A DNA stretch of 64,000 nucleotides from Myxococcales bacterium (GTDB lineage Bacteria > Myxococcota_A > Polyangia > Fen-1088): contig JAGTJU010000004.1 in the NCBI GenBank assembly GCA_022184915.1, forward strand, positions 416,057-480,056. The letters are read 5' to 3'. Of this stretch, positions 4,853-45,929 are shown piece by piece; the stretch's first letter is position 1; every line of letters begins with the position of its first letter. Below the pieces are notes generated by a model. That model made no database searches and had not been told where the DNA came from. It saw only the letters and a program-made list of their open reading frames with translations. A program made the translations under genes and the position numbers.

Positions 4853-4980
4853 TGGTCGTTCGGTGGGTCGCCGCCCCGGCACGCGTAAAGCTTCGATCCC
4901 TCCGCGCGTGCCGGGGCATCTCTTTCGCCCATCGTGAACGAAGCCCGAACCGCTGTCACGTTCGAGGCGCTTTGACGCGG

Positions 4981-5027
4981 TCAGTAATATTCGGACATCA
5001 TGTCCGGAAATTACCGGGTGCGTCAAT
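4981..5027 (+). promoter_or_regulatory. ~47-bp conserved element containing the near-palindrome CGGACATcATGTCCG, upstream of int
   Basis: TCAGTAATATTCGGACATCATGTCCGGAAATTACCGGGTGCGTCAA. A second copy with 5 mismatches is at 9260..9306. Confidence 0.5.
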
Positions 5028-5250
5028 TGAGGCGAGCTTGGCCGGCCAACGCTTCGACCAAATCGTGGTAAGCCGCGGTGAAGCGTGCTTCGTGGCAATC
5101 GACGCCAGTCACCAGGGCGTGGCCCCCGAGCTCAAGCCATGCGTTCAGCGTGTCGTCCGAAAGGCCAGCGAAGAAGCGCGCGGTGCCCTCGTGCCGGTGC
5201 TCGGCGAAGAGCCCCAGGAACAACACAGCCCGGCCGTGGTCGAAGCTCAC
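5023..5250 (-). CDS. hypothetical small protein (island)
   Basis: 75-aa ORF. Its start overlaps the stop of the upstream gene by 4 nt. Confidence 0.3.
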   Translation of the reverse strand: MSFDHGRAVLFLGLFAEHRHEGTARFFAGLSDDTLNAWLELGGHALVTGVDCHEARFTAAYHDLVEALAGQARLN

Positions 5251-7108: not shown

Positions 7109-7891
7109 TCATCGCCCACCTCGCGAAAACCCGTCTGCCGCCGCCTGACGCTTGCGGTCGAACTCGGGCTGGAACGACGCTGCGTTGGCGGCGATGCGCC
7201 GGGCAAGCTCGCGGGTCGCCCGTTCCTCGGCATCGTCCGGGGCTGCCGGTGCCGGTGTCGTCGGGGGCTGTGCCTTGGCCCGCGCCGCGAACCACTCGGC
7301 CTCGACCCGCTCGTCGAACGCCGCGGCGCGAGCGGCCTCGTCGTCCTGCGGCGCCGGCGTCACTGCGGCGTGTATGCCGGTGTCGGTGTCCCGGTGCGTC
7401 GGGGTAGTACTATGACCAGTAGCGTTACTCTGAATAGTACCGTATTCGATGATATCTGAGGCGGACCCATATCGGTCCCCATGTGGGGGGCCAGATGGGT
7501 ACCCACTTGGGGACCCAGATGGGTACCCATCGCCTATGTCCTTGTTTTCATTGGACTTGGGCGTCCAACGGCGCGCTGCGCCCGACCGTCCGCCGTCACG
7601 CTGTGCTCGATACTTCGCCTCAACCGCCGTATCGTAGCCGAGCACGGCGAGATCATCGCCCGACCAGGCCGCGAGGCCCGAGGAGACGAGGCGATCGGCT
7701 TGCGAGCGGTTGATTCCCGGCCCCCGTAGCCAGGCCCGTGGCGCCCACCGGCGAGCCCCGGACAGTACCCCGCCGGTTTCCTGTTCGCCGCAGTGCACAG
7801 CGAGCCGAAGCCACGTGGCGACGTCTGCGTCGCTGGCGGCAGCCATGGCAGGCGAGCGATACCAGCTGTGATCGATTGGGGTGAATCTCAT
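7109..7891 (-). CDS. hypothetical protein with GYPSG tandem repeat (island)
   Basis: Starts at MRFTPIDHSW, with the ATG overlapping the xis stop (ATGA). Contains GYPSGSPSGYPSGPP, encoded by a 22-bp tandem DNA repeat around 7489..7535. The longer ORF-track call (7109..8116) overlaps xis in another frame. Confidence 0.45.
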   Translation of the reverse strand: MRFTPIDHSWYRSPAMAAASDADVATWLRLAVHCGEQETGGVLSGARRWAPRAWLRGPGINRSQADRLVSSGLAAWSGDDLAVLGYDTAVEAKYRAQRDGGRSGAARRWTPKSNENKDIGDGYPSGSPSGYPSGPPHGDRYGSASDIIEYGTIQSNATGHSTTPTHRDTDTGIHAAVTPAPQDDEAARAAAFDERVEAEWFAARAKAQPPTTPAPAAPDDAEERATRELARRIAANAASFQPEFDRKRQAAADGFSRGGR

Positions 7892-8103
7892 CGGGCGCCC
7901 CCGGTCTCGGGCTGGGCGCCGGCAGTGCTGCGAGACTCGACCCATCGGCTCAGCACGGTCTCGGCAACCAACACGCGCCTTCCGATGCGCACGGCATCGA
8001 TTTCGCCCCGTCGAACGGCCTGATACCACCAGGACCTCGACACGTTCGTGAGGCGCGCCACTTCGTCGAGCGGCAGCAACCGGGGCAGTGTGGCGGGTGT
8101 CAT
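7888..8103 (-). CDS. xis: excisionase / AlpA-family HTH DNA-binding protein
   Basis: 71 aa. LLPLDEVARLTNVSRSWWYQAVRRGEIDAVRIGRRVLV matches the Xis/AlpA (HTH_17) fold signature. Confidence 0.75.
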   Translation of the reverse strand: MTPATLPRLLPLDEVARLTNVSRSWWYQAVRRGEIDAVRIGRRVLVAETVLSRWVESRSTAGAQPETGGAR

Positions 8104-8402
8104 CGCGGACCTCCATGCGGCGCCAACTCGTCGAGGCGCTGCCCGGCTACCGCGACGATGTTTCGGACGCAGCCGAGACCCGCCATGAGGCGCGCGATTG
8201 TCGACCGCGACACGCTCAGGAGCTCGGCGGCGCGTGGTTCACCCTCGCGCTGGACCAGGCCGCGCAACACCTCGCGGTGCCTCGGCGAGAGCGGGACCCC
8301 CTTGGCGGCGAATGGCCCGCCGGCTCGGGAGATTCGTTCGTTTGGGTTTGACATGCCCAAACGATGCCGTGGCCCGCGCGCCCCGTGGCCGAGTTCGGAC
8401 AA
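8100..8402 (-). CDS. putative HTH regulator (island)
   Basis: 100-aa ORF. Its stop overlaps the xis start (ATGA). LSPRHREVLRGL...SRSTIARLMA resembles a LuxR/sigma-region-4-like HTH. The true start may be the internal MSNPNERI. Confidence 0.4.
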   Translation of the reverse strand: MSELGHGARGPRHRLGMSNPNERISRAGGPFAAKGVPLSPRHREVLRGLVQREGEPRAAELLSVSRSTIARLMAGLGCVRNIVAVAGQRLDELAPHGGPR

Positions 8403-8437
8403 TTCGGATTTGTCCGAACTTTTGGTACCAATGCGGT

Positions 8438-9097
8438 TTACCTCTTGACTTGTTTCGCTTCGCCGTCAAACAGCCCCTTCGCCCGTCGCTGGCTCATGCC
8501 CATCGCCGCCAAGGCACGGCGAACGTATTCCTCGCCGTCGTAGGCGCTGGCGTCCCGGTCCCGCCACAAGAGCCGCTCGAAGGCGGACGCCACGGCCAAC
8601 GTGAACGCATGCCGCTCGGCGGGCTCATCGAGCACGGACACCTTGGTCCCATCGGCGGCAAGCTGGGCTCGCAGGCATGGGCAGCGGTCGAGCACTTCGC
8701 CCACGAAGGACGCAGCAAGCTCGTGCTCTGTGGCTGGCGAGCGCAACCGGGCCTCGAGGGCGTTCACCAGCGCGGCAAGCTCCACGGGCCGCTCGCTCGC
8801 TCTGCCAGCGCTTGGCGCCACCCGGGCCGCAACTTCGAGGCGCTTGAGCGTGGCGGCGTCGCCGTCGCGAAGTGCTTGCACGAGGCCCGCGAGCACCGAT
8901 GCCACTTGCCGGCTTTCGTGGCCCTCTGGGCGAAACTGCGCTTCGTGGTCGAAGCTCACCCACGCTTCGGCAAGCAGCCCCTTGGCGTCTTCGAGGGCTT
9001 CATCGCCGCCCCACAACGCAAGCGGCTTGCCGTCATCCTCGACTTCGCCAAGCTCGACCAACCCGGCCTTGAGCTCGGCTCGTGGGTCGTAGCCCAT
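8438..9097 (-). CDS. hypothetical protein (island)
   Basis: 219-aa ORF, first gene inside attR. Acidic, helical. No family recognised. Confidence 0.4.
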   Translation of the reverse strand: MGYDPRAELKAGLVELGEVEDDGKPLALWGGDEALEDAKGLLAEAWVSFDHEAQFRPEGHESRQVASVLAGLVQALRDGDAATLKRLEVAARVAPSAGRASERPVELAALVNALEARLRSPATEHELAASFVGEVLDRCPCLRAQLAADGTKVSVLDEPAERHAFTLAVASAFERLLWRDRDASAYDGEEYVRRALAAMGMSQRRAKGLFDGEAKQVKR

Positions 9098-9259
9098 CGG
9101 TGTGCACTCTCTTGCACCCCGGGAAAAGAATCACCGGGTGGCCCGCCGGAGTGCAGACGGCAGGCCCCGTGCGGCTCATGACTTCCGCGCGGTCCCGGTG
9201 CCGCTCAAGCTATTCGCCTTCGTTGCGATCAACAAGCTGCCCTGTGGGATTCACGAGCT

Positions 9260-9306
9260 TCAGTAATAAACGGACATCATGTCCGGAAATTACCGACCGC
9301 GTCAAA
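9260..9306 (+). promoter_or_regulatory. second copy of the 47-bp element with CGGACATcATGTCCG palindrome
   Basis: TCAGTAATAAACGGACATCATGTCCGGAAATTACCGACCGCGTCAA. Compare 4981..5027. Confidence 0.5.
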
Positions 9307-9349
9307 GTGGGCTCACCGGGAGGTGCTCGGTGGGCCTTCGGGAGGCCCG

Positions 9350-9385
9350 TGTGTCGCTTGGGGTGTGTCGCTTGTGTGTCGCTTC
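9350..9385 (+). repeat. three direct TGTGTCGCTT repeats (putative arm-type sites, right end)
   Basis: TGTGTCGCTTggggTGTGTCGCTTgTGTGTCGCTT, same orientation as the left-end copies. Confidence 0.5.
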
Positions 9386-9474
9386 GGAGTGATAATCGGT
9401 GCGATTGATGCGATGTATGCACGAAAAAGTGCAATGAAAACGCACCCATGCAATTGGTGATAACCGGGGGAAAA

Positions 9475-9520
9475 GACTCTTAATCCGTTGGTTCGGGGTT
9501 CGATTCCCTGCGCGCCCACT
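9475..9520 (+). repeat. attR: 46-bp duplicate of the tRNA-Lys 3' end
   Basis: Exact copy of 3525..3570. Flanking sequence differs on both sides. Confidence 0.85.
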
Positions 9521-9811
9521 TTCTGTCGGACCGGTTCCCGGTTACTCCCTTCGACGAAGCGGGGCCTACACGAAACGGCCGCCCCGCACGCGGAGGGGCT
9601 AAGGGCCTGTCGTCGGGCGAAGCCGAGCGGCACGCGTCTTGAAGACGCTTTCACTATGAAGCCGCGGCTGGAGGATGAGGGGGAGGGCCAAGTCAGAGGG
9701 GCCGCTCGCGTGACACAGGTGAAGGGGCGCCCGAGGCCGGCACAGCGGGCAGGCCGGGCCGCCCCGGGGCGCGCGCCTGATCCCCCGCGGCAGTCGGCGG
9801 CGCGGCGCTAC

Positions 9812-12164: not shown

Positions 12165-13091
12165 TCAAAGCCACAGGTCCGTCAGCGTGGCCACCAAAAA
12201 GGCGACCGACACGTACCCGTTCAGGTTGAAAAACGCCATGTCGAGCCGGGACAGATCCGAGGGGCGCAGGATGCTGTGCTCCCACACGAGGATGCCCGCG
12301 ATCACGGCGAGGCCTGCGAAGTAGATGGCCTGCAGGCCGCCCGAAAGCCCCGTGAACACGAGCGCAACGAGCGTCACCCCGTGCAGCCCGCCCGAGATCC
12401 ACAGCGCGCCTTTCACGCCGAAGCGCACCGGGATCGAGCGCAGCTGGGCGCTTTCATCGAAGCCCCGATCGGCCAGGGCGTAAAGGATGTCGAAGCCTCC
12501 GATCCAGGTGGTGACCGCCAGCATCAGCCACAGGGCGGGCGCGGCCAGGCCCCCCGTGACGGCGATCCAGGCGCCTGCGGGTCCGGCCGCGATCGCAAAG
12601 CCCAGCACGAGGTGGCAAAGCCAGGTGAAGCGCTTGGTGTAGGAGTAGCCCAGCACCAAGCCCAGGGCCACCGGGCTTAGCGCCAGGCACAGGGGTCCCA
12701 GGTAGGCCGACACGGCGATGAAGATCGCGCTCGAGAGCAGCACGAGGGCCACGGCCGTACGGAGAGGAACGAGGCCGCGGGGGATCTCACGGTTCGCCGT
12801 ACGTGGGTTGCGGGCGTCGAAGTGCCGATCGACGATGCGGTTCCAGCCCATAGCGGCGGTGCGGGCGGCGGCCATCGCCACCACGATCGCACCCAATCGA
12901 GGCCAGGTGAGCGCGTGGGTGCGCGAGGCCATCGCCGCCGCGGCCAAGGCAAAGGGCAGGGCGAAGACGGTGTGGCTGAACTTGATCATGCGCCCGAAGG
13001 TCCTCACCTGGGCGAGGACGCCGCGAGGCGGGGTGACAGGATCGGGCAGGGAGAGGCTAGGGGGGGCGGAGGTCGGCTTCATGTCATCCAT
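12165..13091 (-). CDS. UbiA-family prenyltransferase (likely 1,4-dihydroxy-6-naphthoate polyprenyltransferase of the futalosine pathway)
   Basis: 308 aa from MDDMKPTS (alternative start M at 13082, which forms an ATGA overlap with the upstream gene). Multi-TM, with NRIVDRHFDARNPRTANREIP and YALADRGFD Asp-rich motifs of the UbiA superfamily. Sits in the mqn cluster. Confidence 0.75.
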   Translation of the reverse strand: MDDMKPTSAPPSLSLPDPVTPPRGVLAQVRTFGRMIKFSHTVFALPFALAAAAMASRTHALTWPRLGAIVVAMAAARTAAMGWNRIVDRHFDARNPRTANREIPRGLVPLRTAVALVLLSSAIFIAVSAYLGPLCLALSPVALGLVLGYSYTKRFTWLCHLVLGFAIAAGPAGAWIAVTGGLAAPALWLMLAVTTWIGGFDILYALADRGFDESAQLRSIPVRFGVKGALWISGGLHGVTLVALVFTGLSGGLQAIYFAGLAVIAGILVWEHSILRPSDLSRLDMAFFNLNGYVSVAFLVATLTDLWL

Positions 13092-14320
13092 TCCACAGAG
13101 GTCGGCGCGCCCTGGACGAGGGTGCGGAGCAAAGCTTCGGCGTGGGGCGCTTCGACGGGCACCGCGAGCACCCCCGGGCGTTGGCCAGGCGTAAGCGAGC
13201 CCAACCAGGGCCTTTCGAGGGCGATGGCGCCCCCGTGGGTGGCGGCTTCGAGCCACAGGTGGGGCGGCAGCGCGGGAAAGGCACCGGCCAGGGCCTTCAT
13301 TTCGTCCCAGAGGGAGAGCGAGGCCACCGACGCCAGGCTGTCGGTGCCGAGCGCCAGGGTCAGCCCGGCATCGACCATCGCGGGCACGGGTGGTGCGCGG
13401 CCGCTGATGTGTTGGTTCGAGCGCAGGCAGAGCACCACGGGCGCGGCGGCGGCGCGCGCCCTGACGATCTCCGGCTCGCCCGCCAGACACATGTGCACGA
13501 GCAAGGGCGCCGGGGGGCCCGCGAAGGCGCCGAGCCGCTCGAGGTAGGGGCCCGGGCCCATGCCGGGGGTGCGGCTGCCGGGCGGCACACCCAGGCGCGC
13601 GAGCACGGGCGCCCAGGCCCCGACGCCCGTCTCGAGCAGCGCGAGCTCGTCGGTGTCCTCGGCGAGGTGGATCGTGGTGCGTTGCCCGGCCGCCTGCGCG
13701 GCCGCGAACAGCCGCGCCAGCAGCGCGGGGCCACCCGAGTAGGGCGCGTGGGGGGCCTGCACGTAGCGGAACCGCAGCGGCCAGTGGCCCGCCCGCACGA
13801 GCGCTTCTTGCTCGGCCCGCAAGGCCTCGAGGCCCGCGCCGCTTCCGTCGTCGCGGGAGCCCAGGATCTCGTGAAAAAAACTGCCTTCCAGGGGGACCTG
13901 CCCGAGCGCCTCGACGCATCCAAGACCGTTGCCCACGTCCCCAAGCGCGATCGTTCCCGCCCGATGCGCAGACGCAGCGGCCCTGTGAGCCGCGGCCAGG
14001 CGCGCGGCGTCGGCCACGTCGCCGGCCGCCCGCTGCAGGCGCCCCACCCAGGGCACGAGGCCCTCGCCCCCGGGCACGCCGCCTGCGAGCGCCGAAAGTT
14101 CGAGGTGGGTGTGCGCGTTCACCAGGGCGGGCAAGAGGGTGCCGTGCACGTGCCGCTGCCGCGCGGGCCCTGCCTGTTTTGCGAGGACCTCGGCGGGCCC
14201 CACGGCCACGATGCTTCCCTCGGCGTCCAGCCACACGGCGCCCTCACGCAAGGGCGGAGCCGTGATGGGCACCACCCAGGAGGCGCTCACCAGTTGGCCC
14301 GTGCGGCCCTCGTGCGCCAT
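13079..14320 (-). CDS. amidohydrolase-family protein (candidate aminodeoxyfutalosine deaminase)
   Basis: 413 aa. HxH metal motif (VNAHTHLELS) plus later His/Asp ligands of the amidohydrolase fold. Position in the mqn cluster. Confidence 0.6.
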   Translation of the reverse strand: MAHEGRTGQLVSASWVVPITAPPLREGAVWLDAEGSIVAVGPAEVLAKQAGPARQRHVHGTLLPALVNAHTHLELSALAGGVPGGEGLVPWVGRLQRAAGDVADAARLAAAHRAAASAHRAGTIALGDVGNGLGCVEALGQVPLEGSFFHEILGSRDDGSGAGLEALRAEQEALVRAGHWPLRFRYVQAPHAPYSGGPALLARLFAAAQAAGQRTTIHLAEDTDELALLETGVGAWAPVLARLGVPPGSRTPGMGPGPYLERLGAFAGPPAPLLVHMCLAGEPEIVRARAAAAPVVLCLRSNQHISGRAPPVPAMVDAGLTLALGTDSLASVASLSLWDEMKALAGAFPALPPHLWLEAATHGGAIALERPWLGSLTPGQRPGVLAVPVEAPHAEALLRTLVQGAPTSVEWMT

Positions 14321-14332
14321 CTTTTCCGCTCC

Positions 14333-16303
14333 TCAGCGCTGCGACGAGGGCAAAAGCTCGTAGCGCATGTTTCGGCGGCGCGGGAGAAAGCCCGCCTCGC
14401 GCACGTAGCGTTCGATGTCCTGCGCCGAGAGCTTGAACACCGCGCCGGCTTGCGACACCACGTTTTCCTCGATCATCGCGCTGCCGAAGTCGTTGCCGCC
14501 GAAGCGCAGCGCCACCTGGCCCACCTCGGGACCCATCGTGGGCCACGAGACCTGCAAACTGGGAAAGTTGTCGAGGTAAAGCCGCGACAGCGCGAACACC
14601 CGCAAGTAACGCATGGCCGTGGTGTCGTCCTTGAGCTTGAGGCGGGTGCCTTCGGCCTGGAAGGGCCAGCAGATGTACGCGGTAAAACCGCCCGTTTCGT
14701 CCTGCAGCGCCCGCAGATGTTCGAGGTGGTTGAAGATGTGCTGCGGGGTCTCGCCAAAGCCGAACACCAACGTGCCCGTGGTGCGCAGCCCGAGCGCGTG
14801 CGCCTGGCGCATGACCTCGAGCCAGGTCTCCGTCGAGCACTTGAGCGGCGAGATGCGCTCGCGGATCTCGTCGTCGAGGATCTCGGCGCCGCCGCCCGGA
14901 ATGGAATCGAGGCCGGCGTCCACGAGCCGTTCGATCACGGCCCGCAGCGACAGGTTTTCGAGCTCGGCGATGTAACGGATCTCCTCGGGCGACAGCCCAT
15001 GGATCGCCAGAGGAAAGTTGGCCTTCATCCAGCGGAAGAGATCCTCGTAGTACGCAAGCGGTAGATCGGGGTTCAAGCCCCCCTGCAGCAGGATCTGAAC
15101 ACCGCCGAGATCGACCGTTTCCTTGAGCTTCTGCGCCAGCACGTCCTTGGGCAAGGTGTAGCCGTCGGCGCGGCCCGGTGGGCGGTAGAAGTTGCAGAAC
15201 TTGCACCGGGTCACGCACACGTTCGTGTAGTTGACGTTCCGATCGATGATGTACGTCACCACGCCATCGCCGTGCAGGGACTTGCGGCGCAGGTCGGCGG
15301 CCGCGCCGAGATCCAGCGTGGGGGCTTCGGCATAGAGCCGAAGCGCGTCCTCGTACCCCAAGCGCTGGCCCGCGGCGGCGTCCGTGAGAAGGGCATCAAT
15401 CGATTTGTTCGGGTGGTCCACGCCCGTGCGGGGCACGGGCAAAGGCGCAGCCGTGCGGACCGTGGTGATGGGGCGCTCGGGGCGGCCATCGTCGAAGAAA
15501 CGCAACGGTGGTTTGCGGGGCAAAAGGCCTGCCGCGTGAGCCCGCGTGAAAAACGCCGTGGCGCCCGAAAGTTCTTCGGCCCCGAGCTGGTAGCGGATGT
15601 TGCGGGTGAGATAGGCCTCGCAGGCCTCGGGAGAAAGATGCGAGTTTTCGGCCCAGCCGCGGGCGATCTCGGCCCGGTGTTCGAGCCCCTGACGAAGGCT
15701 CTCCTTGAGCAGCGCCACCGCTTCACCCTCCACCGCGCCCGGCCGCCCGGCCCACACGGCGTAGACGAAGGGCAGGCCCACCCAGCGCGTCCATTCGGTG
15801 CCGAGATCGTAGACGTAGGGGAAGCGCTCGGCGGCTGCGAACGCGGGGTCACCGATCATCAGTGCGCCCCGGCGGCCCTGCACGCTGTCCACCAAGGTCT
15901 CGTGTGCGGTGAGCGCGAAGCCCGGGGAGAGCCCGCGCTCGTGGGACAGCAGCTTGACCAGCGTCGCCGACGTCCGCGACGCGCTGTCGGTGCCGATGAA
16001 CTCCATCTCTTCCCATGGCACTTCGCCGACCAACAACACCGTGCGCACGGGGCCCTTGCCCGCCACCGCCACGCCCGGCACCACGCGCAGCTCACCCTCG
16101 ATGGTCGCGAGCGAGGCGGTGGGCAGCAGCGCCAGATCCACCTCGCCGTGCGCGAGCCTGTCGGCGCAGCGCGAGGGCAGATCGTAGGTGAGCTCGAAGC
16201 GTTCGCCCATCCGGCCCAGGCCCCGCTCGAGCGCGTACGTGATGGGCCGCGCGTTCAGAAACGAAACGGCGGCCAGGCGCAGCTTGCGGTCAGGCGCGCT
16301 CAT
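14333..16303 (-). CDS. MqnA (chorismate dehydratase)-like domain fused to a MqnE/MqnC-type radical-SAM enzyme
   Basis: 656-aa single ORF. N-terminal ~275 aa has the MqnA-like signature (LRLAAVSFLNARPITYAL). C-terminal ~370 aa carries the radical-SAM CxxxCxFC motif (NYTNVCVTRCKFCNF) and GGAEIL motifs of the MqnC/MqnE family. Confidence 0.7.
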   Translation of the reverse strand: MSAPDRKLRLAAVSFLNARPITYALERGLGRMGERFELTYDLPSRCADRLAHGEVDLALLPTASLATIEGELRVVPGVAVAGKGPVRTVLLVGEVPWEEMEFIGTDSASRTSATLVKLLSHERGLSPGFALTAHETLVDSVQGRRGALMIGDPAFAAAERFPYVYDLGTEWTRWVGLPFVYAVWAGRPGAVEGEAVALLKESLRQGLEHRAEIARGWAENSHLSPEACEAYLTRNIRYQLGAEELSGATAFFTRAHAAGLLPRKPPLRFFDDGRPERPITTVRTAAPLPVPRTGVDHPNKSIDALLTDAAAGQRLGYEDALRLYAEAPTLDLGAAADLRRKSLHGDGVVTYIIDRNVNYTNVCVTRCKFCNFYRPPGRADGYTLPKDVLAQKLKETVDLGGVQILLQGGLNPDLPLAYYEDLFRWMKANFPLAIHGLSPEEIRYIAELENLSLRAVIERLVDAGLDSIPGGGAEILDDEIRERISPLKCSTETWLEVMRQAHALGLRTTGTLVFGFGETPQHIFNHLEHLRALQDETGGFTAYICWPFQAEGTRLKLKDDTTAMRYLRVFALSRLYLDNFPSLQVSWPTMGPEVGQVALRFGGNDFGSAMIEENVVSQAGAVFKLSAQDIERYVREAGFLPRRRNMRYELLPSSQR

Positions 16304-17451
16304 GGCACCACCTCCAGCGCGCGGCGGCTCACGTTGCGGCGGAAGGGCTTTTGCGGGACCAGGGCGTCGCCTTCGGCGATCACGTTGTAGAGCGTGTCGC
16401 GCTCGACAGGGGTGCGCCCGGCGTTGACGATGAGGCGCACGATCTCGTCGGGGGCCAGGGTCTGCGGCGTCTCCGCACCGGCCATGTGATAGATCTTTTC
16501 CTCTTGCACGGTGCCATCGAGATCATCGGCACCGAACCAAAGCGCCGTTTGCGCCGTCTTCACCCCCAGCATCACCCAGTACGCCTTGAGGTGCGGGATG
16601 TTGTCCAGAAGCAACCGGGCCACCGCGTACGTGCGCAGGTCTTCGATGCCCGTGGGCGCAGGCAGCTTCATGAGGGCGTTGTTGTCGGGGTGGAAGGCCA
16701 GGGGGATGAAGGTCTGAAAGCCGCCTGTTTCGTCTTGCAGGGCGCGCAGCGCGAGCATGTGGTCCACACGTTCTTCCAGGGTCTCGATGTGCCCGTAGAG
16801 CATCGTGCAGTTCGATCGCATGCCCATCTGGTGGGCCGTGCGGTGTACGGCCAGCCATTCTTCGGCGTTGCACTTGTCGTCGCACACCTTCTTGCGCACC
16901 CGCGGGGCAAAGATCTCGGCGCCGCCGCCCGGCAGGGAATCGAGACCGGCGGCCCGCAGCTGCTCCAGCACCTCCTTTACGGAGAGTCCGTAGCGCTGGT
17001 GGTAGTAGTGCACTTCCACCGCCGTAAAGGCCTTGAGATGGATGTCCGGCTTGATGCGCTTGAGACCCGCGAGGAGGTCCGTGTAGTAGGAAAACGGCAG
17101 GCCCGGGTGAAGGCCATTGACGATATGGATCTCCGTCACGGGCTCGCCCACGTCCACGCGCCTTTGCAGACGGCCGAGGGCTTCTTCGAGCGAAAGGGTC
17201 TGCGCCTGGGGGCTGCCCTCCTCGAGCCGCGCGAACGAGCAGAACCGGCAGCTGGCCACACAGACGTTCGTGGCGTTGATGTGGAAGTTCCGGTTGAAGT
17301 ACGTGCGCGCGCCGTGCATCCGCTCCCGGACCTCATTGGCCAGGGCGCCGAGCTCCATCAGGTTGGCGTGATCGAAGAGCGCGACACCGTCCTCGAAGGA
17401 CAGAGGCTCGCCGTCTTTGACTTTGTCGCGAATGCGGGAAAACGTGCTCAT
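16300..17451 (-). CDS. MqnC/MqnE-type radical-SAM enzyme (menaquinone via futalosine)
   Basis: 383 aa. NATNVCVASCRFCSF Cys triad. Paralogous to the C-terminal half of 14333..16303. ATGA overlap with the upstream gene. Confidence 0.7.
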   Translation of the reverse strand: MSTFSRIRDKVKDGEPLSFEDGVALFDHANLMELGALANEVRERMHGARTYFNRNFHINATNVCVASCRFCSFARLEEGSPQAQTLSLEEALGRLQRRVDVGEPVTEIHIVNGLHPGLPFSYYTDLLAGLKRIKPDIHLKAFTAVEVHYYHQRYGLSVKEVLEQLRAAGLDSLPGGGAEIFAPRVRKKVCDDKCNAEEWLAVHRTAHQMGMRSNCTMLYGHIETLEERVDHMLALRALQDETGGFQTFIPLAFHPDNNALMKLPAPTGIEDLRTYAVARLLLDNIPHLKAYWVMLGVKTAQTALWFGADDLDGTVQEEKIYHMAGAETPQTLAPDEIVRLIVNAGRTPVERDTLYNVIAEGDALVPQKPFRRNVSRRALEVVP

Positions 17452-18194
17452 GGGGTCACCTCTTCGAGCCGGCCGCCTGCCAGGCGTTCCACCGGCTGGA
17501 GCTGCGCGCCTGCAATGAAAACCACGACCTCCTTGCGGGTCATGGCGGGGTTGTTGGCGTTGGCGCCCAGGCGCAGGGCGCGTTCCGAAACGATGGGGCC
17601 ATAAAGCCCGTTGGCCCCGAAGCCGAGCGCCATCTGCGCCAGCCGGTGGCCGAGGCGCGCGAAGTCGGCCACCACGGCCGTGCCCGCGAAGCGAACGCCG
17701 CAGGCGGCGAAGTGGGCCAGGGTATCGAGGCCCATGGGCTCGCCCGTGGGCGTGGGGATCACCGCTTCCACGGGGGTACCACGCTCACGGCAGGCGTGGA
17801 GGAACGCTTCCACGGCGTTCAGGCGCTCCTCGCGCGTGGCGGGGGCTTCACCGGCTTCGTAGGGCACCCGCAGCTGACCCCGCATCCCCAGCGCGAGCGC
17901 CGCGCTCATGGTGGGCAGGGACGCGCCCACGAACACCTGCGCGCCCGCGGCCCAGGCCGCATCGAGCCCGCCCAGCGCCGGCAGGTCGCTTTCTTCGACC
18001 ACGCTGTCGGCGGCATCCTTCGGGCCCTGCCACGTGCCCGTACCAAGCAGACGGCGGCTGCGGGCGAAGACGCATCGATTGCCGCCCAGGCGCTGGCGAA
18101 GCTCGTTGGCCGTGCGGGCCTGTGCGAACAGATCCGCGGGTGGCATGTCGGCGCACGGGACGGTTGGGGGCGAGACGCTGTCGTGGGTGTGCAT
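17448..18194 (-). CDS. hypothetical protein, translationally coupled to ubiX
   Basis: 248 aa from MHTHDSV. Its ATG overlaps the ubiX stop (TGATG). The ORF-track N-terminal extension to 18635 is Arg/Gly-rich and overlaps ubiX. No family recognised. Confidence 0.45.
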   Translation of the reverse strand: MHTHDSVSPPTVPCADMPPADLFAQARTANELRQRLGGNRCVFARSRRLLGTGTWQGPKDAADSVVEESDLPALGGLDAAWAAGAQVFVGASLPTMSAALALGMRGQLRVPYEAGEAPATREERLNAVEAFLHACRERGTPVEAVIPTPTGEPMGLDTLAHFAACGVRFAGTAVVADFARLGHRLAQMALGFGANGLYGPIVSERALRLGANANNPAMTRKEVVVFIAGAQLQPVERLAGGRLEEVTP

Positions 18195-18790
18195 CAGACC
18201 AGGGTTCCTTCCGGGCCCTCGCCCCACCGGGGCATCAGGCGGTTGTCGAGGCCCAGGTGATCCAGCACCCGGGCGTTCACGGTGTCGACCAGGGCCTCGA
18301 CCCCGCGGGGCTGGCTGTAGAACGAAGGGCTCGCGGGCAACACCACGGCGCCCGCGCGCGTGACGGCCGCCATGTTCTCGATGTGCAGCAGCGACAAGGG
18401 GGTCTCGCGGAACACGAGCACCAGCTTGCGTCGCTCCTTGAGCATCACGTCCGCCGCCCGGCCCACGAGGTCGTCCGAGATGCCGTGAGCGATGCGCGCG
18501 AGGCCACCCGCTGAACACGGCACCACCACCATGGCGTGCCAGCCCGCCGAGCCCGAGGCGAACGGGGCCGAAAAGTCCGAACGTTCGTAGCGACGAAACG
18601 GCAGGTCCGGGGGGCCACCCAGCTCGTGCTTCCACACCTGCTCACCGGCGCGCGAGAAGCAGACACCCACCTCCAGGGGCTCGCCCGCGTCCCGAAGCGC
18701 AGCCAGGCTGAGCAGCAGGCGTTGTGCGTAGATCGCGCCCGAGGCGCCGCCCACGGCCACCACGATTTTGCGGGGGCCCGGGCGCATCAT
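18194..18790 (-). CDS. ubiX: UbiX/Pad1-family flavin prenyltransferase
   Basis: 198 aa. KIVVAVGGASGAIYAQRLL flavin-binding N-terminus typical of UbiX. Confidence 0.8.
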   Translation of the reverse strand: MMRPGPRKIVVAVGGASGAIYAQRLLLSLAALRDAGEPLEVGVCFSRAGEQVWKHELGGPPDLPFRRYERSDFSAPFASGSAGWHAMVVVPCSAGGLARIAHGISDDLVGRAADVMLKERRKLVLVFRETPLSLLHIENMAAVTRAGAVVLPASPSFYSQPRGVEALVDTVNARVLDHLGLDNRLMPRWGEGPEGTLV

Positions 18791-19509
18791 TGCGCCACCA
18801 CCAGCGACGCCACGCCGGCCGGAAACAGCTCCCGCCCCGTCACGGAGGCAAAGCCCGCGGCCTCGAGCTCGCCTTGTACCTCGCGGCGGCTGGCGAAGGC
18901 CGCGATGGAGTCCGGCAGGTACCGATAAGCGTCGCGGTCACCCGTCACCGCCCACCCGACCAGGGGCAGGATGTGCTTGTTGTACAAACGGTCGAAGAAA
19001 AAGCGCGGGCGCTCGGGGCGGAAGAACTCCAGCACCACGAGGCGGGCACCGGGCTTGAGCACGCGCCGCAGCTCCGCAAAGGCCTGCGGGCGGTTCACGA
19101 GGTTCCGTACGCAAAACGCGCTGAACGCCCCATCGAAGACCTGCGCCCGGTAGGGCAGGTGGTGCCCGTCCGCCCCGTGTGGGGCCACGCAGGCTGGGGC
19201 TGGCACCTTGCCCACGCCCACCCGCAGCATCTGCTGGGCAAAGTCGGCGGCCGCCACCCGCGCACCGGGCGCGCGGCGTGCGATCTCGATCGAGCCGTCC
19301 AGCGTGCCCGCGCCGAGGTCCAGCAGGCAGGGCGCGGCGCCCGCGGTCTCGAGAAGCGGCAGGAGCGCTTGCTTGCGCCAGCGCTTGTCCACCCCGGCGG
19401 ACATCACCCGGTTGGCGGCATCGTAACGGCCCGCGATCCGATCGAACATACCGCGCACGTCGGTGCGCGCGGCCAACGAGGGTGGGGGAGGGGCGCTCGC
19501 GGCGGGCAT
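18787..19509 (-). CDS. UbiE/MenG-family (demethyl)menaquinone methyltransferase
   Basis: 240 aa. FDRIAGRYDAANRVMSAGVDKRWRK and LDLGAGT SAM-binding motif. Confidence 0.8.
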   Translation of the reverse strand: MPAASAPPPPSLAARTDVRGMFDRIAGRYDAANRVMSAGVDKRWRKQALLPLLETAGAAPCLLDLGAGTLDGSIEIARRAPGARVAAADFAQQMLRVGVGKVPAPACVAPHGADGHHLPYRAQVFDGAFSAFCVRNLVNRPQAFAELRRVLKPGARLVVLEFFRPERPRFFFDRLYNKHILPLVGWAVTGDRDAYRYLPDSIAAFASRREVQGELEAAGFASVTGRELFPAGVASLVVAQ

Positions 19510-20550
19510 TCAGACCACCCGCTCCACGGAGAGCCAGGCCAACGCCGAGAGGGCCTGCCGATAGGGGCTGTCGGGCAAAGCGCCGAGAGCCGCCTGTGCT
19601 TGCTCCACCAGCCGGTGGGCGTGGCGCCGCGCGGCTTCGACGCCTCCGCAGCGCTGCACCAGCCTCAGCACCTCGGCCGTGGCGGGCGCGGCCATACCCG
19701 TGTCCGTCATGTGCCGGGCCAGCGCCTGCTGTACGGCGGGGTCGAGCTCGGCGGCCAACAAGACCGGCAAGGTCAGTTTGCCCTCGGCCAGGTCGTGGCC
19801 CACCGACTTGCCGGCCGTGGCTTCGTCCACCGCGCAGTCGAGGATGTCGTCGGCGATTTGGAAGGCGCGGCCCACCATGCGCCCGTAGGTCGTCATGGCT
19901 TCGAGGGGCCCTGGGTCCAGTGCGTCACCAACGCGTGCGCACCATGAGATGAGCGAGCCCGTCTTGCGGTCGATGACGTCCATGTATCCCGAAACCGTAA
20001 CGTCCACCCGTCCCGCACGTTCCAACTGCGAAACCTCACCCTCCGCCATCTCCGTGACTGTCGCGGCCAGGGACTGGACGACCGGCAGGTGACCGGTGGC
20101 GCTGACCAACGCCAGAGCCCGGGCCAGGCAGAAGTCGCCCACCAGAACGACGACGCCGTTGCCGAACACCATGCGGGCGGCCGGGCGTCCGCGGCGGACA
20201 CGCCCGTCGTCCACGACGTCGTCGTGAAAGAGCGTGGCGCTGTGAATCAACTCGGCGGCTACGCCCACTGCGATGCCCAACTCGACCGGGGCATGAGCGG
20301 CGCGGGCAGCGAGCACCGCCAGCAAGGGTCGGAGCCGCTTTCCGCCCGCCGCCAGCAGATGCTCCCCCACCTTTGGGATCGGCCCTACCTGGCTTTCCAT
20401 CGCCGCGGACAGACGCTCGTCCACGTGTTTCATTTCTTCGGCCACCAGGGCCAAACCTCGCTCGAGGGCAGCGGACGTGCTCATACCCGCGGCCATCGGG
20501 GGCGCCGAAGGGGAGGCGGGTTGAACGTTGACGCGGGCGGTTTCGCTCAT
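19510..20550 (-). CDS. all-trans polyprenyl diphosphate synthase (IspB-like)
   Basis: 346 aa. First and second Asp-rich motifs LFHDDVVD and FQIADDILD. Confidence 0.8.
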   Translation of the reverse strand: MSETARVNVQPASPSAPPMAAGMSTSAALERGLALVAEEMKHVDERLSAAMESQVGPIPKVGEHLLAAGGKRLRPLLAVLAARAAHAPVELGIAVGVAAELIHSATLFHDDVVDDGRVRRGRPAARMVFGNGVVVLVGDFCLARALALVSATGHLPVVQSLAATVTEMAEGEVSQLERAGRVDVTVSGYMDVIDRKTGSLISWCARVGDALDPGPLEAMTTYGRMVGRAFQIADDILDCAVDEATAGKSVGHDLAEGKLTLPVLLAAELDPAVQQALARHMTDTGMAAPATAEVLRLVQRCGGVEAARRHAHRLVEQAQAALGALPDSPYRQALSALAWLSVERVV

Positions 20551-24331: not shown

Positions 24332-25456
24332 TTAAGGGGTGGCCCGTGTGCGCAGCGCCTGGGCCAGCGACACGTCCACGTCTTTGCGGGGCGCGGGGGC
24401 CCGGGCTGCCAGCTGGCCGCAGGCTGCGTCGATGTCGTCGCCCCGGGGCATGCGAATGTACACCTGAATGCCCCGGGCGCGGAGGCGCCCCTGGAACGAC
24501 AACACGCGTTCGGTGCTGGGGCGCTGGAACTGCGGACCGTTGAAAGGGTTCCAGGGGATGAGATTCACCATGCTGGGCAGGCCGCTCACCAGGCGCACCA
24601 GACGGTCGGCGTCCGCGTCGGCGTCGTTGACGCCCGCCAGCAGCACGTACTCGAAGGTGATCTTGCGCCCGTGACCCAGGGGAAAGCGCTTCACCGCGGC
24701 CATCAGCGTGGCGATCGGCCACTTGCGGTTGATCGGCATGATCTGGTCCCGCACCTCGTCCGACGAGGCATTGAGGGAGATGGCCAGGTTGGGCACGTGT
24801 TCGAGCGCGGCCAATTTCTCGATGCCGGTGACCAGGCCCGACGTGCTGATGGTGATCCGACGGGGCGAAAACGCCGCACCCCAGGGGTGGCAGAGCAGCT
24901 CGAAGGCGCGCTTGACGTTGTCGAAGTTGTGCAGCGGTTCACCCATGCCCATGAACACGATGTTCGTGGGGCGGCGGCCCGCCAGCTCCGTGGCCCAGTA
25001 GACCTGCGAGACGATCTCGCCGGCGCTGAGGTTGCGGCCAAAGCCCAGTGTGGCCGTGGCGCAGAACTTACAGTCGATGGCGCACCCCACTTGCGAGGAA
25101 ATGCAGAGGGTGAGTCGGTCCCGCTCCTGGTTGTCGTCAGGGATCAGCACGGCCTCGATGGAACGGCCGTCGTGGGTCGAGAAGGCAAACTTACGGGTGC
25201 CATCGCGCGCGCTCTGCTCGACGGCCAGCCCCAAAGCGGACGGGGCGGCCTCGGCCGCCAAGATCTCGCGCAGGGCGGCGGGCACGTTGCAGGGGGCGTT
25301 GAGGTCCCGCACGGCGCCCACGCCACCAGCCCCCGGGCCGTGCAGCCACCGAAACACCTGTTCGGCCCTGTAGGGCGGGTGTCCGGCGGCCACGACCCGG
25401 GGCTTGAGCTCGGCGGGGGTGAGGTCTCTGAGATCCACGGCGCCCAGTTGTAGCAT
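24332..25456 (-). CDS. rlmN: 23S rRNA/tRNA adenine-C2 methyltransferase RlmN (radical SAM)
   Basis: 374 aa. CAIDCKFCAT radical-SAM motif. Conserved RlmN layout (YRAEQVFRWLH N-terminus, MGMGEP, IPWNP). Confidence 0.85.
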   Translation of the reverse strand: MLQLGAVDLRDLTPAELKPRVVAAGHPPYRAEQVFRWLHGPGAGGVGAVRDLNAPCNVPAALREILAAEAAPSALGLAVEQSARDGTRKFAFSTHDGRSIEAVLIPDDNQERDRLTLCISSQVGCAIDCKFCATATLGFGRNLSAGEIVSQVYWATELAGRRPTNIVFMGMGEPLHNFDNVKRAFELLCHPWGAAFSPRRITISTSGLVTGIEKLAALEHVPNLAISLNASSDEVRDQIMPINRKWPIATLMAAVKRFPLGHGRKITFEYVLLAGVNDADADADRLVRLVSGLPSMVNLIPWNPFNGPQFQRPSTERVLSFQGRLRARGIQVYIRMPRGDDIDAACGQLAARAPAPRKDVDVSLAQALRTRATP

Positions 25457-25526
25457 GCGCCTTCCTTCGGTTCCGCTTCACCCGCACGCGGGCGGGCGCG
25501 CCGGGGCGGCCCCAAGGGCGCACAGC

Positions 25527-28187
25527 CTAGCGGCGCCGTCGCCGCAGCCGGAAAGCGCCCCCCAGCGCCAGCAGCACGAGAGCTCCGGCGCCCGTGGGGG
25601 CGTCGCCGCCGTGGCCAAGCGCGCAGGAACAGCCGCCCCCCTCCGTGCGCACCGTGCGGGTCACGCGGGTGTCGGGGCAGTCGCTGCGGGGGAGGCACTG
25701 CGGGATGCCATCGGCCGTGAGCGTGCACGCAAAACAGCCGTTGCTGGGGCAGGTGACCGTCTTGCAGGGATCGTCCTTGCATTGGCCTGTGAGGGGCACG
25801 CAGGCCTGCCCCGGGCATACCCTGAGAAGACAGGCGTTCGCCTGGCACTGGCCGGTGGCCGGATCGCAGACCTGACCGCTGGCGCAGGCGATGCCACTGC
25901 AGGCGTCCGCTTCACAGGAGCCCTTCACGCACCGCTGGCCTCCCGGGCAGGCCGTGGCGCAGTTGTCGATGCACTGGCCCTCCTGGCAGTACTGGTTAGC
26001 CGCGCAGGCCACGCCCGCGCAGGGATCCGCCGCGCACGCGCCGGCGAGACAGAGCTGACCCGGCTGGCAGAGGCTGGGCACCGTGCGGCAGTCGTTGCAC
26101 ACGCCGTTGACGCAGCGGGCGGGGGCCTGGCAGACCACACCCTGGCAAGGATCTTCGCAGGCGCCCGAGCCCGGGTTGCAGCGGAAGCCGGGCATGCAGG
26201 TGACGTCGCGGCACTTGGTGGAAAGGCACACCTCGACCGCGGCATCGTCCACCGAGCGCCGCCCCTCGTTGCACGCGAAGCCCGGTGGGCACGGGAACTC
26301 GCCGCTGCTGCACGGCAACTCGCACTTGGCGGGCACGAGATCGACCACGGGATCCTTCTTCACGCAGATGCGTCCGTTCGGGCAGATTATCTCACCGTCA
26401 TCGGTGAGGCCATCGCAGTCGTTGTCTTTGCCGTCGCAGGTCTCGTCCCGCGGGGGCACGCAGCCCTGGCACGAAAGCCCCAAGGCGCCCGCACACACCT
26501 GCTTGCCCTTGCGGCACTCGCCCGTGCTGAGCTGCTCGAGGGTGAAGGGTTCACAGGCGCAGTCGGCGCCGCCCAGGCCTTCATCGGTCTGGCCGTTGCA
26601 GTCGTTGTCCTTGCCGTCGCAAAGCTCGGGCATGGGGGTGTTGACCTGCACGCACACCAGCGCGCCCCCGCGGCAGGCAAACGCGCCCGCCTTGCATTCA
26701 CCCACGGCCACACCGCAGGGCTCGCCTTCCCCGGGCAGCGTCGTTTGCCCCTCGGGCGGTTCGTCAACCATGCCGTCGCAGTCGTCGTCCACGTTGTTGC
26801 AAAGCTCGGGGGTGCCGGCCACCGGAGGGGCGTCGCACACCGTGCCCAGGCCGTTCGGCGCGCACACCTTGGTGCCGGCACGGAAGCAGGCGCCCCGGCC
26901 GCCGTTGTTGCAGGCGGCGCCAAGGTCGAAGCCCTCGTCGATCTGGCCGTTGCAGTTGTTGTCTTTCCCGTCGCAGATCTCGCTTGCCGGACCCTGGCAG
27001 CCGTTGCAGGCGAGGGCGCCCGCCGTACATGCGGTGACACCCAGCCGGCACATGCCCTTGCCGTCCTGCTCGGGGGTGACGAGCCCGTTGCAGGTGCAGC
27101 TTTCGCCCGCCCCGGGCAGGGGGGCTTCGTCGACGAGGCCATCGCAGTCGTCGTCGACGCCGTTGCAGATCTCCGCGGGGGGCACGGTCTGCGCGATGAT
27201 GCCCACGAGCTCGCGCTTGATCTCGTCGCTGTTGGTGAAGTCGACGCCGATGGCCTTCGTGGTGCCGCCACTGGCGGCGATGGCATCCAGGGGGTTGCTG
27301 GCGCCCCCCAGCAGGCTTCTGTCCGTGAGGACGTAAACGGGCACCTGTGAGTTTTGGAAGAGTGTGCTGGCCTGGGTGCGCGGGTTGAAGGGGGAAAGCT
27401 CCGCTTCGTCGCACTTCTCGATGCCGTCGGTCACCAGGATCACCAGGTTCTTGCGGCACTGGCCCTTCGGGTCCACGAAGGCCGCGCCGTTTTTCCGGCG
27501 CACATAGTTGTCGTAGTAGAGTCGGGCGTAAAAGAGTGAACGGCCAAGCGGCGTGGCGAAACCCAGCTCGGGGTTGTTGCCCTTGCCCGTACCGCCGGCC
27601 CGGATCTCCGGATCCGTGATCACCCCACCCGAAGCCGCTTCGGTCAGGTTGATCCATCGCAGGAGCTCGGCCACGTTGCCGTCGGCCGGATCGTAATCGC
27701 CAGGGGCCGGTTTGCCCGTGTTGGCTTTGTTGGTCACGGGAACCACGATGGCCTCGCGGTAGGCGCTATCGAACCAGGCGCCGTATTCGGTCTGGTTGCT
27801 GTTGTGGGTAGTGAGCTGGCAGCCGACGCGGGTGCTGTTGTCGTTGAAGTAGCGGCCGCGGGGACATACGGGGCTGCTGTTCGGCGCTTCCTTTTGCGGG
27901 TAGCGCATGAGCCCGAAGTTCGCCTCATCGGTGCCCACCTGCGCAAGCGTCTCGCGGAGGGCCTGTTTGAGCAGAAAAATGCGCCTGTTGGTGCCCTGGC
28001 CCCCGCAGAGCGGAGAGCCATCGAGGCGGTTGAGGGTGTTCCACTCGTCGTTGTCCGCCATCGACCCCGACGTGTCGAAGACGATGAGGATGTTGGGCTT
28101 GAGCGCCTGTGCGTGCGCAGGGCTGGCGGTGGCCAGCGCCGCAGCGCCTGCTGCCAGGACGACCCACGAGCGTTTCACGAAAGCCAT
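25527..28187 (-). CDS. secreted VWA-domain protein with myxobacterial Cys-rich repeats and MYXO-CTERM sorting tail
   Basis: Starts MAFVKRSWVVLAAGAAALATASPAHA (signal peptide; GAGGAA Shine-Dalgarno upstream). VWA MIDAS ILIVFDTSGSM. Over 10 CxGxDxDCDGxxDE-type repeats. C-terminal GGCSCA...ALVLLALGGAFRLRRRRR. Confidence 0.75.
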   Translation of the reverse strand: MAFVKRSWVVLAAGAAALATASPAHAQALKPNILIVFDTSGSMADNDEWNTLNRLDGSPLCGGQGTNRRIFLLKQALRETLAQVGTDEANFGLMRYPQKEAPNSSPVCPRGRYFNDNSTRVGCQLTTHNSNQTEYGAWFDSAYREAIVVPVTNKANTGKPAPGDYDPADGNVAELLRWINLTEAASGGVITDPEIRAGGTGKGNNPELGFATPLGRSLFYARLYYDNYVRRKNGAAFVDPKGQCRKNLVILVTDGIEKCDEAELSPFNPRTQASTLFQNSQVPVYVLTDRSLLGGASNPLDAIAASGGTTKAIGVDFTNSDEIKRELVGIIAQTVPPAEICNGVDDDCDGLVDEAPLPGAGESCTCNGLVTPEQDGKGMCRLGVTACTAGALACNGCQGPASEICDGKDNNCNGQIDEGFDLGAACNNGGRGACFRAGTKVCAPNGLGTVCDAPPVAGTPELCNNVDDDCDGMVDEPPEGQTTLPGEGEPCGVAVGECKAGAFACRGGALVCVQVNTPMPELCDGKDNDCNGQTDEGLGGADCACEPFTLEQLSTGECRKGKQVCAGALGLSCQGCVPPRDETCDGKDNDCDGLTDDGEIICPNGRICVKKDPVVDLVPAKCELPCSSGEFPCPPGFACNEGRRSVDDAAVEVCLSTKCRDVTCMPGFRCNPGSGACEDPCQGVVCQAPARCVNGVCNDCRTVPSLCQPGQLCLAGACAADPCAGVACAANQYCQEGQCIDNCATACPGGQRCVKGSCEADACSGIACASGQVCDPATGQCQANACLLRVCPGQACVPLTGQCKDDPCKTVTCPSNGCFACTLTADGIPQCLPRSDCPDTRVTRTVRTEGGGCSCALGHGGDAPTGAGALVLLALGGAFRLRRRRR

Positions 28188-28213
28188 GGCGGGTTCCTCG
28201 AGGTTGCGAAGGG

Positions 28214-30127: not shown

Positions 30128-30285
30128 CGGCGAAAGGGTTCCTCATTCACACGGAGCGAAGGGGCCGCGCGCACCCGAACGGCTTGGGGCGTCTCAGCAA
30201 GGGCATCATAGGGAAACGGCCCGGAAAACCACAGAGGTTTGTGGGCAGCTCCTGCCGAGGTCCGGGGGCAGCGCGGCGACGTTCG

Positions 30286-37472: not shown

Positions 37473-38215
37473 TAGCGTCGTGTTCTTTCAGCGCTGAATG
37501 CATCCAGGTGAAGCGGAGAGTCACGCCGTGCGACGGCTTCGTCAGCATGAACTGCCACCATGAAAGCTGCGTTTGTTCTTTCGATCCGATGGCCCCGAAG
37601 GATGCGGCTACTTCCTTCTCGTTTCAAGCTGACGAAGCCTGTGCGTCCGGTGAGGTTGCTGAGCGCCTGTTTCGTCGTTGGTGTCTATCAGGAAGCGAAA
37701 AAGGAAGGTGGCCTTCACGTCAGGGGGCGGCTTCGTGGAAACTCCGAGGAGGAAGCGCTTCGGCCACATCACACGGCCATCGTGGAGGCCGCGCTTGGCG
37801 ACGGCCGGCTAAGAACCCTTGAGCAGCATGTGAAGCCGCTCGGCAAGAAGGTGCAGAGCCCCATCATCTATTGGCGTTCGGCGAAGATCCCACCTTGGAC
37901 GTTTCCCGAGACGATTCGTGACAACGCCGACCGCCGCACGCCCGCCATGGTCACCGAGGAAGTGGAGGTGCTCGTGACGGGAAGCATTTGGGCATACCGG
38001 CCGCGGGCGAAGTAGGGGGCGTGGTCCTCCTCGCGATGAGACCGCTAGACTTGACCTAATCCTTAAAGCCAATCTGCCGGTAGATCAAATCCGGACCGGC
38101 CTTTGCGAGGTAAGAACCGTGGGCGGTACAACGGTGTCATTGGAATGGCATCCACGCCGCAGCGGCCCCGAGTAGAGTCGAAGAGGTTCGCTTTGCCGAG
38201 TTCCCATCTCTTCCT

Positions 38216-45901: not shown

Positions 45902-45929
45902 GCATTTTCAGCTTGCCTGTGCGCATTCT

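Follow-up and report, generated by a model that had tools for sequence, protein, structure and literature searches.

A predicted MqnA::MqnC fusion and an MqnE-derived paralogue in a futalosine-pathway menaquinone operon of an uncultured myxobacterium

Which enzymes of the futalosine (aminofutalosine) pathway of menaquinone synthesis are joined in a single 656-amino-acid (656-aa) open reading frame (ORF) of an uncultured myxobacterium, is the join genuine, and what could it do for the pathway? The ORF lies within a run of eight genes in a stretch of 64,000 nucleotides from a Myxococcales bacterium (assembly GCA_022184915.1, contig JAGTJU010000004.1, positions 416,057 to 480,056 of the forward strand), here called the window. 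An earlier annotation made from the letters of this DNA without database searches, the sequence-only reading, had described an MqnA-like N-terminal half running without a stop into a radical-SAM (S-adenosylmethionine) domain of MqnC or MqnE type, the second such domain in the cluster, and had proposed that the fusion channels an unstable intermediate from MqnA to MqnE. Our analysis recovers both halves and assigns the second one to a later step of the pathway. With a probability of roughly 80%, the 656-aa protein is an MqnA::MqnC fusion, predicted from its sequence to be a bifunctional chorismate dehydratase and cyclic dehypoxanthinyl futalosine synthase. The ORF and its parts are as follows:

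14333-16303, minus strand: 656-aa ORF, predicted MqnA::MqnC, with PF02621, Radical_SAM and CofH_C
15518-16303, minus strand: predicted MqnA domain of the fusion, residues 1 to ~262; PF02621, with ScMqnA (MqnA of Streptomyces coelicolor) as best PDB match
15404-15517, minus strand: linker of ~38 residues, from the MqnA C-terminal 'LRFF' motif to the MqnC N-terminal helix; in frame, no stop
14333-15403, minus strand: predicted MqnC (radical-SAM) half of the fusion, residues 301-656 with the stop codon; TIGR03699, CxxxCxxC, CofH_C

Pfam places PF02621 at residues 8-256 of the protein (170.7 bits), Radical_SAM at residues 357-529 (79.7 bits) and CofH_C at residues 539-652 (120.9 bits), and both halves recognised by the sequence-only reading are thereby recovered, the first with ScMqnA as its best match and the second as a Radical_SAM plus CofH_C pair downstream of PF02621 in the same ORF. 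That reading had left the choice between MqnC and MqnE to an alignment, and we told the two apart by their NCBIfam equivalog models, TIGR03699 for MqnC (cut-off 428.1 bits) and TIGR03700 for MqnE (cut-off 434.55 bits). Because the fused C-terminal domain passes the first with 452.2 bits (residues 314-650) and fails the second with 311.4 bits, we assign it to MqnC and not to MqnE. The stand-alone gene immediately upstream (16300-17451) gives the reverse pattern, passing TIGR03700 with 511.6 bits and failing TIGR03699 with 361.9 bits. The cluster cysteines of the fused domain, C363, C367 and C370 (CxxxCxxC), are invariant in 71 homologues.

The Pfam family of the N-terminal half, PF02621, takes in both MqnA and MqnD, which share a Venus-flytrap fold. 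When the N-domain was compared alone with solved structures, only MqnA entries were returned at E<=1, the best being ScMqnA (E 2e-25), and a profile made from 14 N-domains of fused proteins and unfused relatives scored 223.7 bits against ScMqnA (E 2.4e-65) versus 33.5 bits against the MqnD protein TTHA1568 (E 2.7e-7). MqnD was ruled out as the identity of the domain by this profile comparison. The residues of ScMqnA that are relevant to ligand binding or catalysis are Asn17, Ser86, the Ser109-Arg110-Thr111-Ser112 loop, Gly151 and Tyr242 (PMC9672406), and the N-domain of the fusion has N17, S109, R110, T111, S112, G151 and Y231. Both halves of the protein would be expected to have the enzymatic activities of their families.

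The fusion is a genuine gene across the lineage and not an artefact. Across the junction (15400-15580) the frame stays open, with zero stops, and among the related loci, which were gathered from one genome per GTDB species (82 loci examined), 14 Myxococcota genome loci have both domains in one frame, again with zero stops. A frameshift or stop at the junction was ruled out by this direct reading together with the 14 independent assemblies. The sequence-only reading had named an interruption of the frame at the domain boundary in other assemblies as a refutation of its claim, and had proposed as a check whether other Myxococcota keep the fusion; no such interruption is seen in the independent assemblies, and other Myxococcota do keep it. 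At least 120 protein clusters (the best 120 listed, 68-100% identical) are without exception built from these three domains, in 579-688 aa, and these 120 come from NCBI, JGI, ENA and Logan assemblies. Where the clusters of fused proteins carry a public name, it is "cyclic dehypoxanthinyl futalosine synthase", and the 90% cluster to which the window protein belongs also holds an NCBI protein of equal length on an 806-kb contig, MCG5054641.1, named "dehypoxanthine futalosine cyclase [Myxococcales bacterium]". The MqnA::MqnC architecture is, then, abundant in public databases and is labelled there only as MqnC; in the literature searched we found no description of an MqnA-MqnC fusion.

In a fifteenth Myxococcota locus, L013, the N-domain joined to MqnC is degenerate. 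This locus comes from the same metagenome-assembled genome (MAG) as L010 and holds, at 7209-9614 (plus strand), a second, paralogous pair of mqnE and fused gene; its MqnA-like N-domain scores 57 bits on the MqnA profile and has lost the FLNARP motif, and its MqnC domain is intact.

MqnA makes 3-enolpyruvyl-benzoate, the first step of the pathway, and the fourth step is that of MqnC, which turns dehypoxanthinyl futalosine into its cyclic form; between the two act MqnE and a deaminase/hydrolase or a nucleosidase. Because the steps of MqnA and MqnC are non-consecutive, the product of MqnA cannot be channelled directly to its fused partner, and the earlier proposal of an unstable intermediate passed from MqnA to MqnE does not survive the identification of the fused domain as MqnC. 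What the fusion would bring is a fixed 1:1 stoichiometry and the co-localisation of two enzymes of one pathway, and it may be part of an MqnA/MqnE/MqnC assembly in which MqnE is contributed by the separate gene immediately upstream. A neutral or stoichiometric fusion is the reading that we adopt by default. An AlphaFold2 (AF2) model of the full-length protein reached a predicted template-modelling score (pTM) of 0.82, without an error map, with the linker at a predicted local distance difference test (pLDDT) score of 88-96 and with the radical-SAM core round the cluster loop poorly modelled; an ordered linker of this kind is compatible with a fixed arrangement of the domains.

The fused gene is embedded in eight consecutive, co-oriented and mostly overlapping ORFs that occupy 12165-20550 of the minus strand; all eight are present at the coordinates given, and the description that had been read from the sequence is confirmed. 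Besides the 656-aa ORF, which follows mqnE, they are, in operon order:

19510-20550, minus strand: long-chain polyprenyl diphosphate synthase (IspB-like), operon gene 1; PF00348, 197.9 bits
18787-19509, minus strand: UbiE/MenG-type (demethyl)menaquinone methyltransferase; TIGR01934, 176.1 bits (cut-off 158.35), and PF01209, 123 bits
18194-18790, minus strand: UbiX-family flavin prenyltransferase; TIGR00421, 187.4 bits (cut-off 108.9)
17448-18194, minus strand: 248-aa paralogue with an MqnE-like fold, without CxxxCxxC or GGE; no Pfam match
16300-17451, minus strand: stand-alone MqnE, aminofutalosine synthase, radical SAM; TIGR03700, 511.6 bits (cut-off 434.55)
13079-14320, minus strand: amidohydrolase; NF006269, 109.4 bits (cut-off 320), and nearest PDB relatives
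12165-13082, minus strand: UbiA-family prenyltransferase, last operon gene; TIGR01475, 282.2 bits (cut-off 180.8)

For the first of these genes the best NCBIfam match is octaprenyl diphosphate synthase, at 235 bits and under the equivalog cut-off, and the UbiX gene may have an MqnM-like role. ATGA overlaps make up four of the junctions, and TGATG, TGAATG and a 12-nt spacer with GGAG occur once each. The TGAATG is the point at which the ispB stop abuts the ubiE start; ATGA joins ubiX and ubiE, joins mqnE to the neighbour on either side, and overlaps the amidohydrolase stop with the ubiA start at 13082. To judge from their sequence and spacing, the eight genes are a translationally coupled menaquinone operon of the futalosine (aminofutalosine) route in an uncultured Polyangia-like member of the Myxococcota, and the claim of a futalosine-pathway cluster is upheld. 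The order ispB-ubiE-ubiX-unk-mqnE-mqnA::mqnC-amidohydrolase-ubiA, in which unk is the 248-aa gene, is kept in the related loci L001-L011, the amidohydrolase being absent from a few. The operon is flanked by unrelated genes, all of them on the plus strand: an Omp85-like gene at one end, and genes for an Rrf2 regulator and a sigma-70 factor at the opposite end; a scan of the operon for promoters and terminators gave nothing above chance.

The 248-aa protein belongs to a previously undescribed family, and is a more novel item than the fusion. It has no Pfam match, and its family counts at least 561 homologous clusters, all of them annotated as 'hypothetical'. By BLASTP and hhalign it is homologous to the C-terminal half of MqnE together with the helix that precedes the cluster motif; hhalign gave a probability of 97.2% and an E-value of 3.8e-11 against the MqnE of the window, versus an E-value of 3.8e-6 against MqnC. 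Its AF2 model (pLDDT 90.4) has MqnE 6xig as the top match in Foldseek (E 3e-11, TM score 0.70), and the SAM-binding motif of MqnE, 'GGGAEIF', aligns to 'AAGAQVF' in the 248-aa protein. Because of this sequence homology, the MqnE-like fold and the aligned GGGAE/AAGAQ motif, we regard the protein as derived from MqnE. It carries neither CxxxCxxC nor GGE, and among 30 homologues many polar residues, and no cysteine, are invariant. On these features the 248-aa protein is an MqnE-derived barrel that is predicted to be incapable of radical-SAM chemistry.

Among the related loci, the 248-aa gene is confined to the Polyangia-type L001-L011, where it stands between ubiX and mqnE, and it is absent from the fused Myxococcota loci L012 and L030 and from all other phyla examined. 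The protein is strongly conserved, and its gene is translationally coupled to mqnE. That it is a functional new component of the pathway is a tentative idea, which we hold to be clearly less probable than its contrary. It might be a pseudoenzyme that serves, as a subunit, to organise or activate a complex of MqnA::MqnC with MqnE, or a barrel repurposed for a step that is missing from the operon, such as futalosine hydrolysis or an MqnD-type ring conversion. Replacement of MqnD by the 248-aa protein was considered and set aside, the anti-correlation of the two being uninformative: of the Acidobacteriota and Gemmatimonadota loci without a 248-aa gene, nearly all have no MqnD close to the cluster either.

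The best PDB matches of the amidohydrolase are DR_0824 (E 1.4e-24), the aminofutalosine deaminase 7lkj (E 3e-18) and 3v7p, and its position after mqnC is also kept in Acidobacteriota loci. It is probably an aminofutalosine deaminase, and since its nearest solved relatives include that enzyme, the branch from aminofutalosine to futalosine is indicated. The UbiA protein passes the general model TIGR01475 and scores 283-286 bits on the MqnP-specific NCBIfam models, under their cut-offs of 420-430; its operon context points to an MqnP role. As for MqnD, a scan with hidden Markov models found no second PF02621 copy anywhere in the window. Of the related loci, L030 and L018 alone have a true MqnD close to the cluster; in the first of them, a fused locus, it is a separate gene, and MqnD is normally encoded away from the mqn cluster in these relatives. 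MqnD homologues are present in Myxococcales MAGs.

The unfused relatives suggest how the joined gene came about. Most loci of the Acidobacteriota, Gemmatimonadota and Calditrichota have two separate neighbouring genes, mqnA first and mqnC straight after it, which are either out of frame with one another or divided by stops. In a dozen such loci the two genes share the frame, with one stop between them and the mqnC start 0-5 codons later ("...RFFEA(stop) MSIQAI..."), so that these loci are one point mutation, or one stop read-through, away from a fusion. Because unfused mqnA and mqnC are often parted in this way, with one in-frame stop and 0-5 codons between them, loss of a stop codon between neighbouring operon genes is the most likely origin of the fusion; the stop between adjacent mqnA and mqnC would have been lost in a myxobacterial ancestor, leaving the fused gene. 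The linker stands at the position of the stop codon and short spacer of the unfused relatives, and its length and sequence vary among homologues and are kept among close relatives. In a neighbour-joining tree of the MqnC domain, which carries no support values, all fused proteins fall in one Myxococcota clade. Single-stop, same-frame mqnA/mqnC junctions were seen in many Acidobacteriota and Gemmatimonadota loci among L015-L029 and L069.

Fusions of the early futalosine enzymes in other orders also occur. By Pfam and NCBIfam, public proteins include MqnA::MqnE::MqnC (P0245, 1121 aa), MqnE::MqnC (P0246) and MqnE::MqnA (P0298, P0335), and a Myxococcota MAG encodes an apparent MqnE::MqnA::MqnC in which the MqnC part is partial (P0291/P0398, annotated 'MqnE [Myxococcota bacterium]'). 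These other-order fusions are small metagenomic clusters, mostly with a single or a few members, and they could include artefacts. As far as domain assignment goes, an MqnA-MqnE fusion does occur elsewhere in public data, and not in this window. The recurrence of every pairwise combination of MqnA, MqnE and MqnC is classical Rosetta-stone evidence that the three associate physically.

Could the radical-SAM half be MqnE after all, with two consecutive steps joined and their intermediate channelled? MqnC and MqnE are close paralogues, the only solved relative returned for the fused domain is MqnE 6xi9 (E 2.9e-56, no other solved chain being returned), and MqnE::MqnA fusions (P0298, P0335) do occur elsewhere; but the fused domain passes the MqnC equivalog and fails that of MqnE, the adjacent gene already scores 511.6 bits as MqnE, and a second MqnE is unneeded in that genome, all of which makes this reading very improbable. 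Smaller still, close to nil, is the probability that an error of assembly or sequencing, in the form of a lost stop or a frameshift, has merged separate mqnA and mqnC genes into the long ORF. A single base error could indeed mimic a fusion where, as in other phyla, one in-frame stop parts the two genes, and the long-read-style locus L002 shows frameshift fragmentation elsewhere in the cluster. However, such an error would have to be squared with the same frame and zero stops in 14 independent Myxococcota assemblies, with at least 120 protein clusters of the same architecture from four data sources, with the equal length of MCG5054641.1 in the same 90% cluster, and with a ~38-residue linker that is absent from unfused genes and kept among close relatives.

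Several observations do weigh against the reading of the 656-aa protein as a bifunctional MqnA::MqnC with a single origin. The equivalent of ScMqnA Ser86 is Thr88 in the Polyangia-type fusions, with the hydroxyl retained (L030 and the unfused relatives have Ser at this position), and Ser86 of ScMqnA has been reported to be absolutely conserved and essential, the S86A protein being inactive. The MqnB, MqnD and UbiD families are absent among the 38 window ORFs scanned with Pfam, a set that covers the cluster and its immediate flanks and leaves out several ORFs and four stretches of the window; the sequence-only reading had likewise placed MqnB and MqnD outside the cluster, and neither was found in it or in its immediate flanks. 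As to the origin, one and several fusion events are both compatible with the data: a search of 1.84 billion cluster representatives, which also turned up the other-order fusions, returned 18 colinear full-length MqnA::MqnC proteins among the best 150, some of them 33-43% identical, and BLAST of the divergent fused representatives against the related loci yielded no taxonomic placement. Because these representatives were not placed and the tree is without support values, additional independent fusions are possible. The first two observations lend themselves to a reading of the N-domain as MqnD, or as a non-catalytic ligand-binding module (for example a sensor of chorismate or product that regulates MqnC), in place of an active chorismate dehydratase. 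In its favour are the Venus-flytrap fold common to MqnA and MqnD, the lack of an MqnD in the cluster, the Thr of this clade, and the degenerate yet still fused N-domain of L013, which indicates that the domain can persist without MqnA features. We nevertheless judge it unlikely, given the profile scores of 223.7 bits for MqnA and 33.5 bits for MqnD, the conservation of N17, the S109-R110-T111-S112 loop, G151 and Y231, the lack of any other mqnA in the window, and the fact that most loci, whatever the phylum, have no MqnD close to the cluster and that it is a separate gene in the fused locus L030. A further reading extends the MqnA::MqnC assignment: MqnA::MqnC, MqnE and the 248-aa paralogue might form an obligate complex, in which MqnA would sit beside MqnE and channelling would be achieved indirectly. 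All pairwise and triple MqnA/MqnE/MqnC fusions occur in public sequences, the genes are translationally coupled, the MqnE-derived paralogue is encoded directly upstream of mqnE in the same sub-clade, and the two-domain model has a pTM of 0.82 (without an error map); but of the other fusion types most come as lone or small metagenome clusters in which artefacts are possible, and the data can be explained just as well by simple drift that fused overlapping genes of the operon, so that we consider such a complex possible, at longish odds, and better placed than the other alternatives.

The remainder of the window holds further features that lie apart from the operon:

3578-5131: phage-type integrase
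24332-25477: RlmN-like radical-SAM gene, with genes for MopE-type proteins downstream of it
25527-30142, minus strand: two large proteins that bear putative copper-binding repeats of MopE type, one of them also with an FGE-sulfatase domain
36294-37433, minus strand: IS630-like DDE_3 transposase, adjoining the next feature
38114-40309, plus strand: Schlafen-group-3-like helicase gene
43164-43463 and 51607-51906: direct repeat, 96% identity, spacing 8443 bp
43215-43886 and 51658-52329, minus strand: AbiEi-antitoxin-like ORFs, one carried by each repeat copy
44177-46382: IS66-family element, bracketed by the AbiEi repeats

The transposase, helicase and integrase genes suggest the presence of mobile or defence islands in the window.

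The pathway and all the enzyme families dealt with here are known, the cluster is routine and the fusion is a modest architectural variant. Its practical consequence lies in annotation: the naming of ~650-aa proteins as MqnC alone hides the MqnA of a myxobacterial clade, and surveys of pathway completeness would wrongly score mqnA as absent. The recurring fusions of MqnA, MqnE and MqnC in several orders provide a testable hypothesis, namely that the early enzymes of the futalosine pathway act together, and in Helicobacter, Campylobacter and Chlamydia this pathway is a target for antibiotics. The 248-aa family, for its part, would exemplify a radical-SAM enzyme scaffold that is kept in the absence of radical chemistry.

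Compared with known systems, the proteins and genes of this operon show both similarities and differences: (i) With MqnA (Streptomyces coelicolor SCO4506, PDB 2nxo/7ahr; Deinococcus 2i6e), the fusion shares a PF02621 Venus-flytrap domain that is colinear over residues 8-255, as well as the equivalents of Asn17, Ser109-Arg110-Thr111-Ser112, Gly151 and Tyr242 of ScMqnA; in contrast to ScMqnA, the window domain is the N-terminus of a 656-aa protein, has Thr at the position of Ser86 and is only ~30-35% identical. (ii) As in MqnC (TIGR03699; for example SCO4550), the equivalog cut-off is passed, CxxxCxxC and CofH_C are present, and the public family name is already that of MqnC; the window protein differs by an additional N-terminal MqnA domain of ~300 residues, which public annotation does not mention. 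(iii) MqnE (Pedobacter heparinus, PDB 6xi9/6xig; TIGR03700) has a member in the window at 16300-17451, and the 248-aa protein shares its fold and C-terminal motifs; this paralogue, however, is ~130 residues shorter and lacks the Fe-S cysteines and GGE, and the fused domain is not MqnE. (iv) The mqnA-mqnC and mqnE-mqnA-mqnC operons of Acidobacteriota and Gemmatimonadota have their genes in the same order, with the amidohydrolase, ubiA, ubiX and ubiE coming next in many loci, whereas in them a stop or a change of frame parts mqnA from mqnC and there is no MqnE-like paralogue devoid of the cluster motif. (v) FbiC, the bifunctional FO synthase (CofG/CofH), is a curated fusion within the same CofH-like radical-SAM family, and its model NF006687 was matched as a distant relative; but while FbiC joins the two radical-SAM halves of one reaction, the fusion described here would join a dehydratase to a cyclase that acts several steps later.

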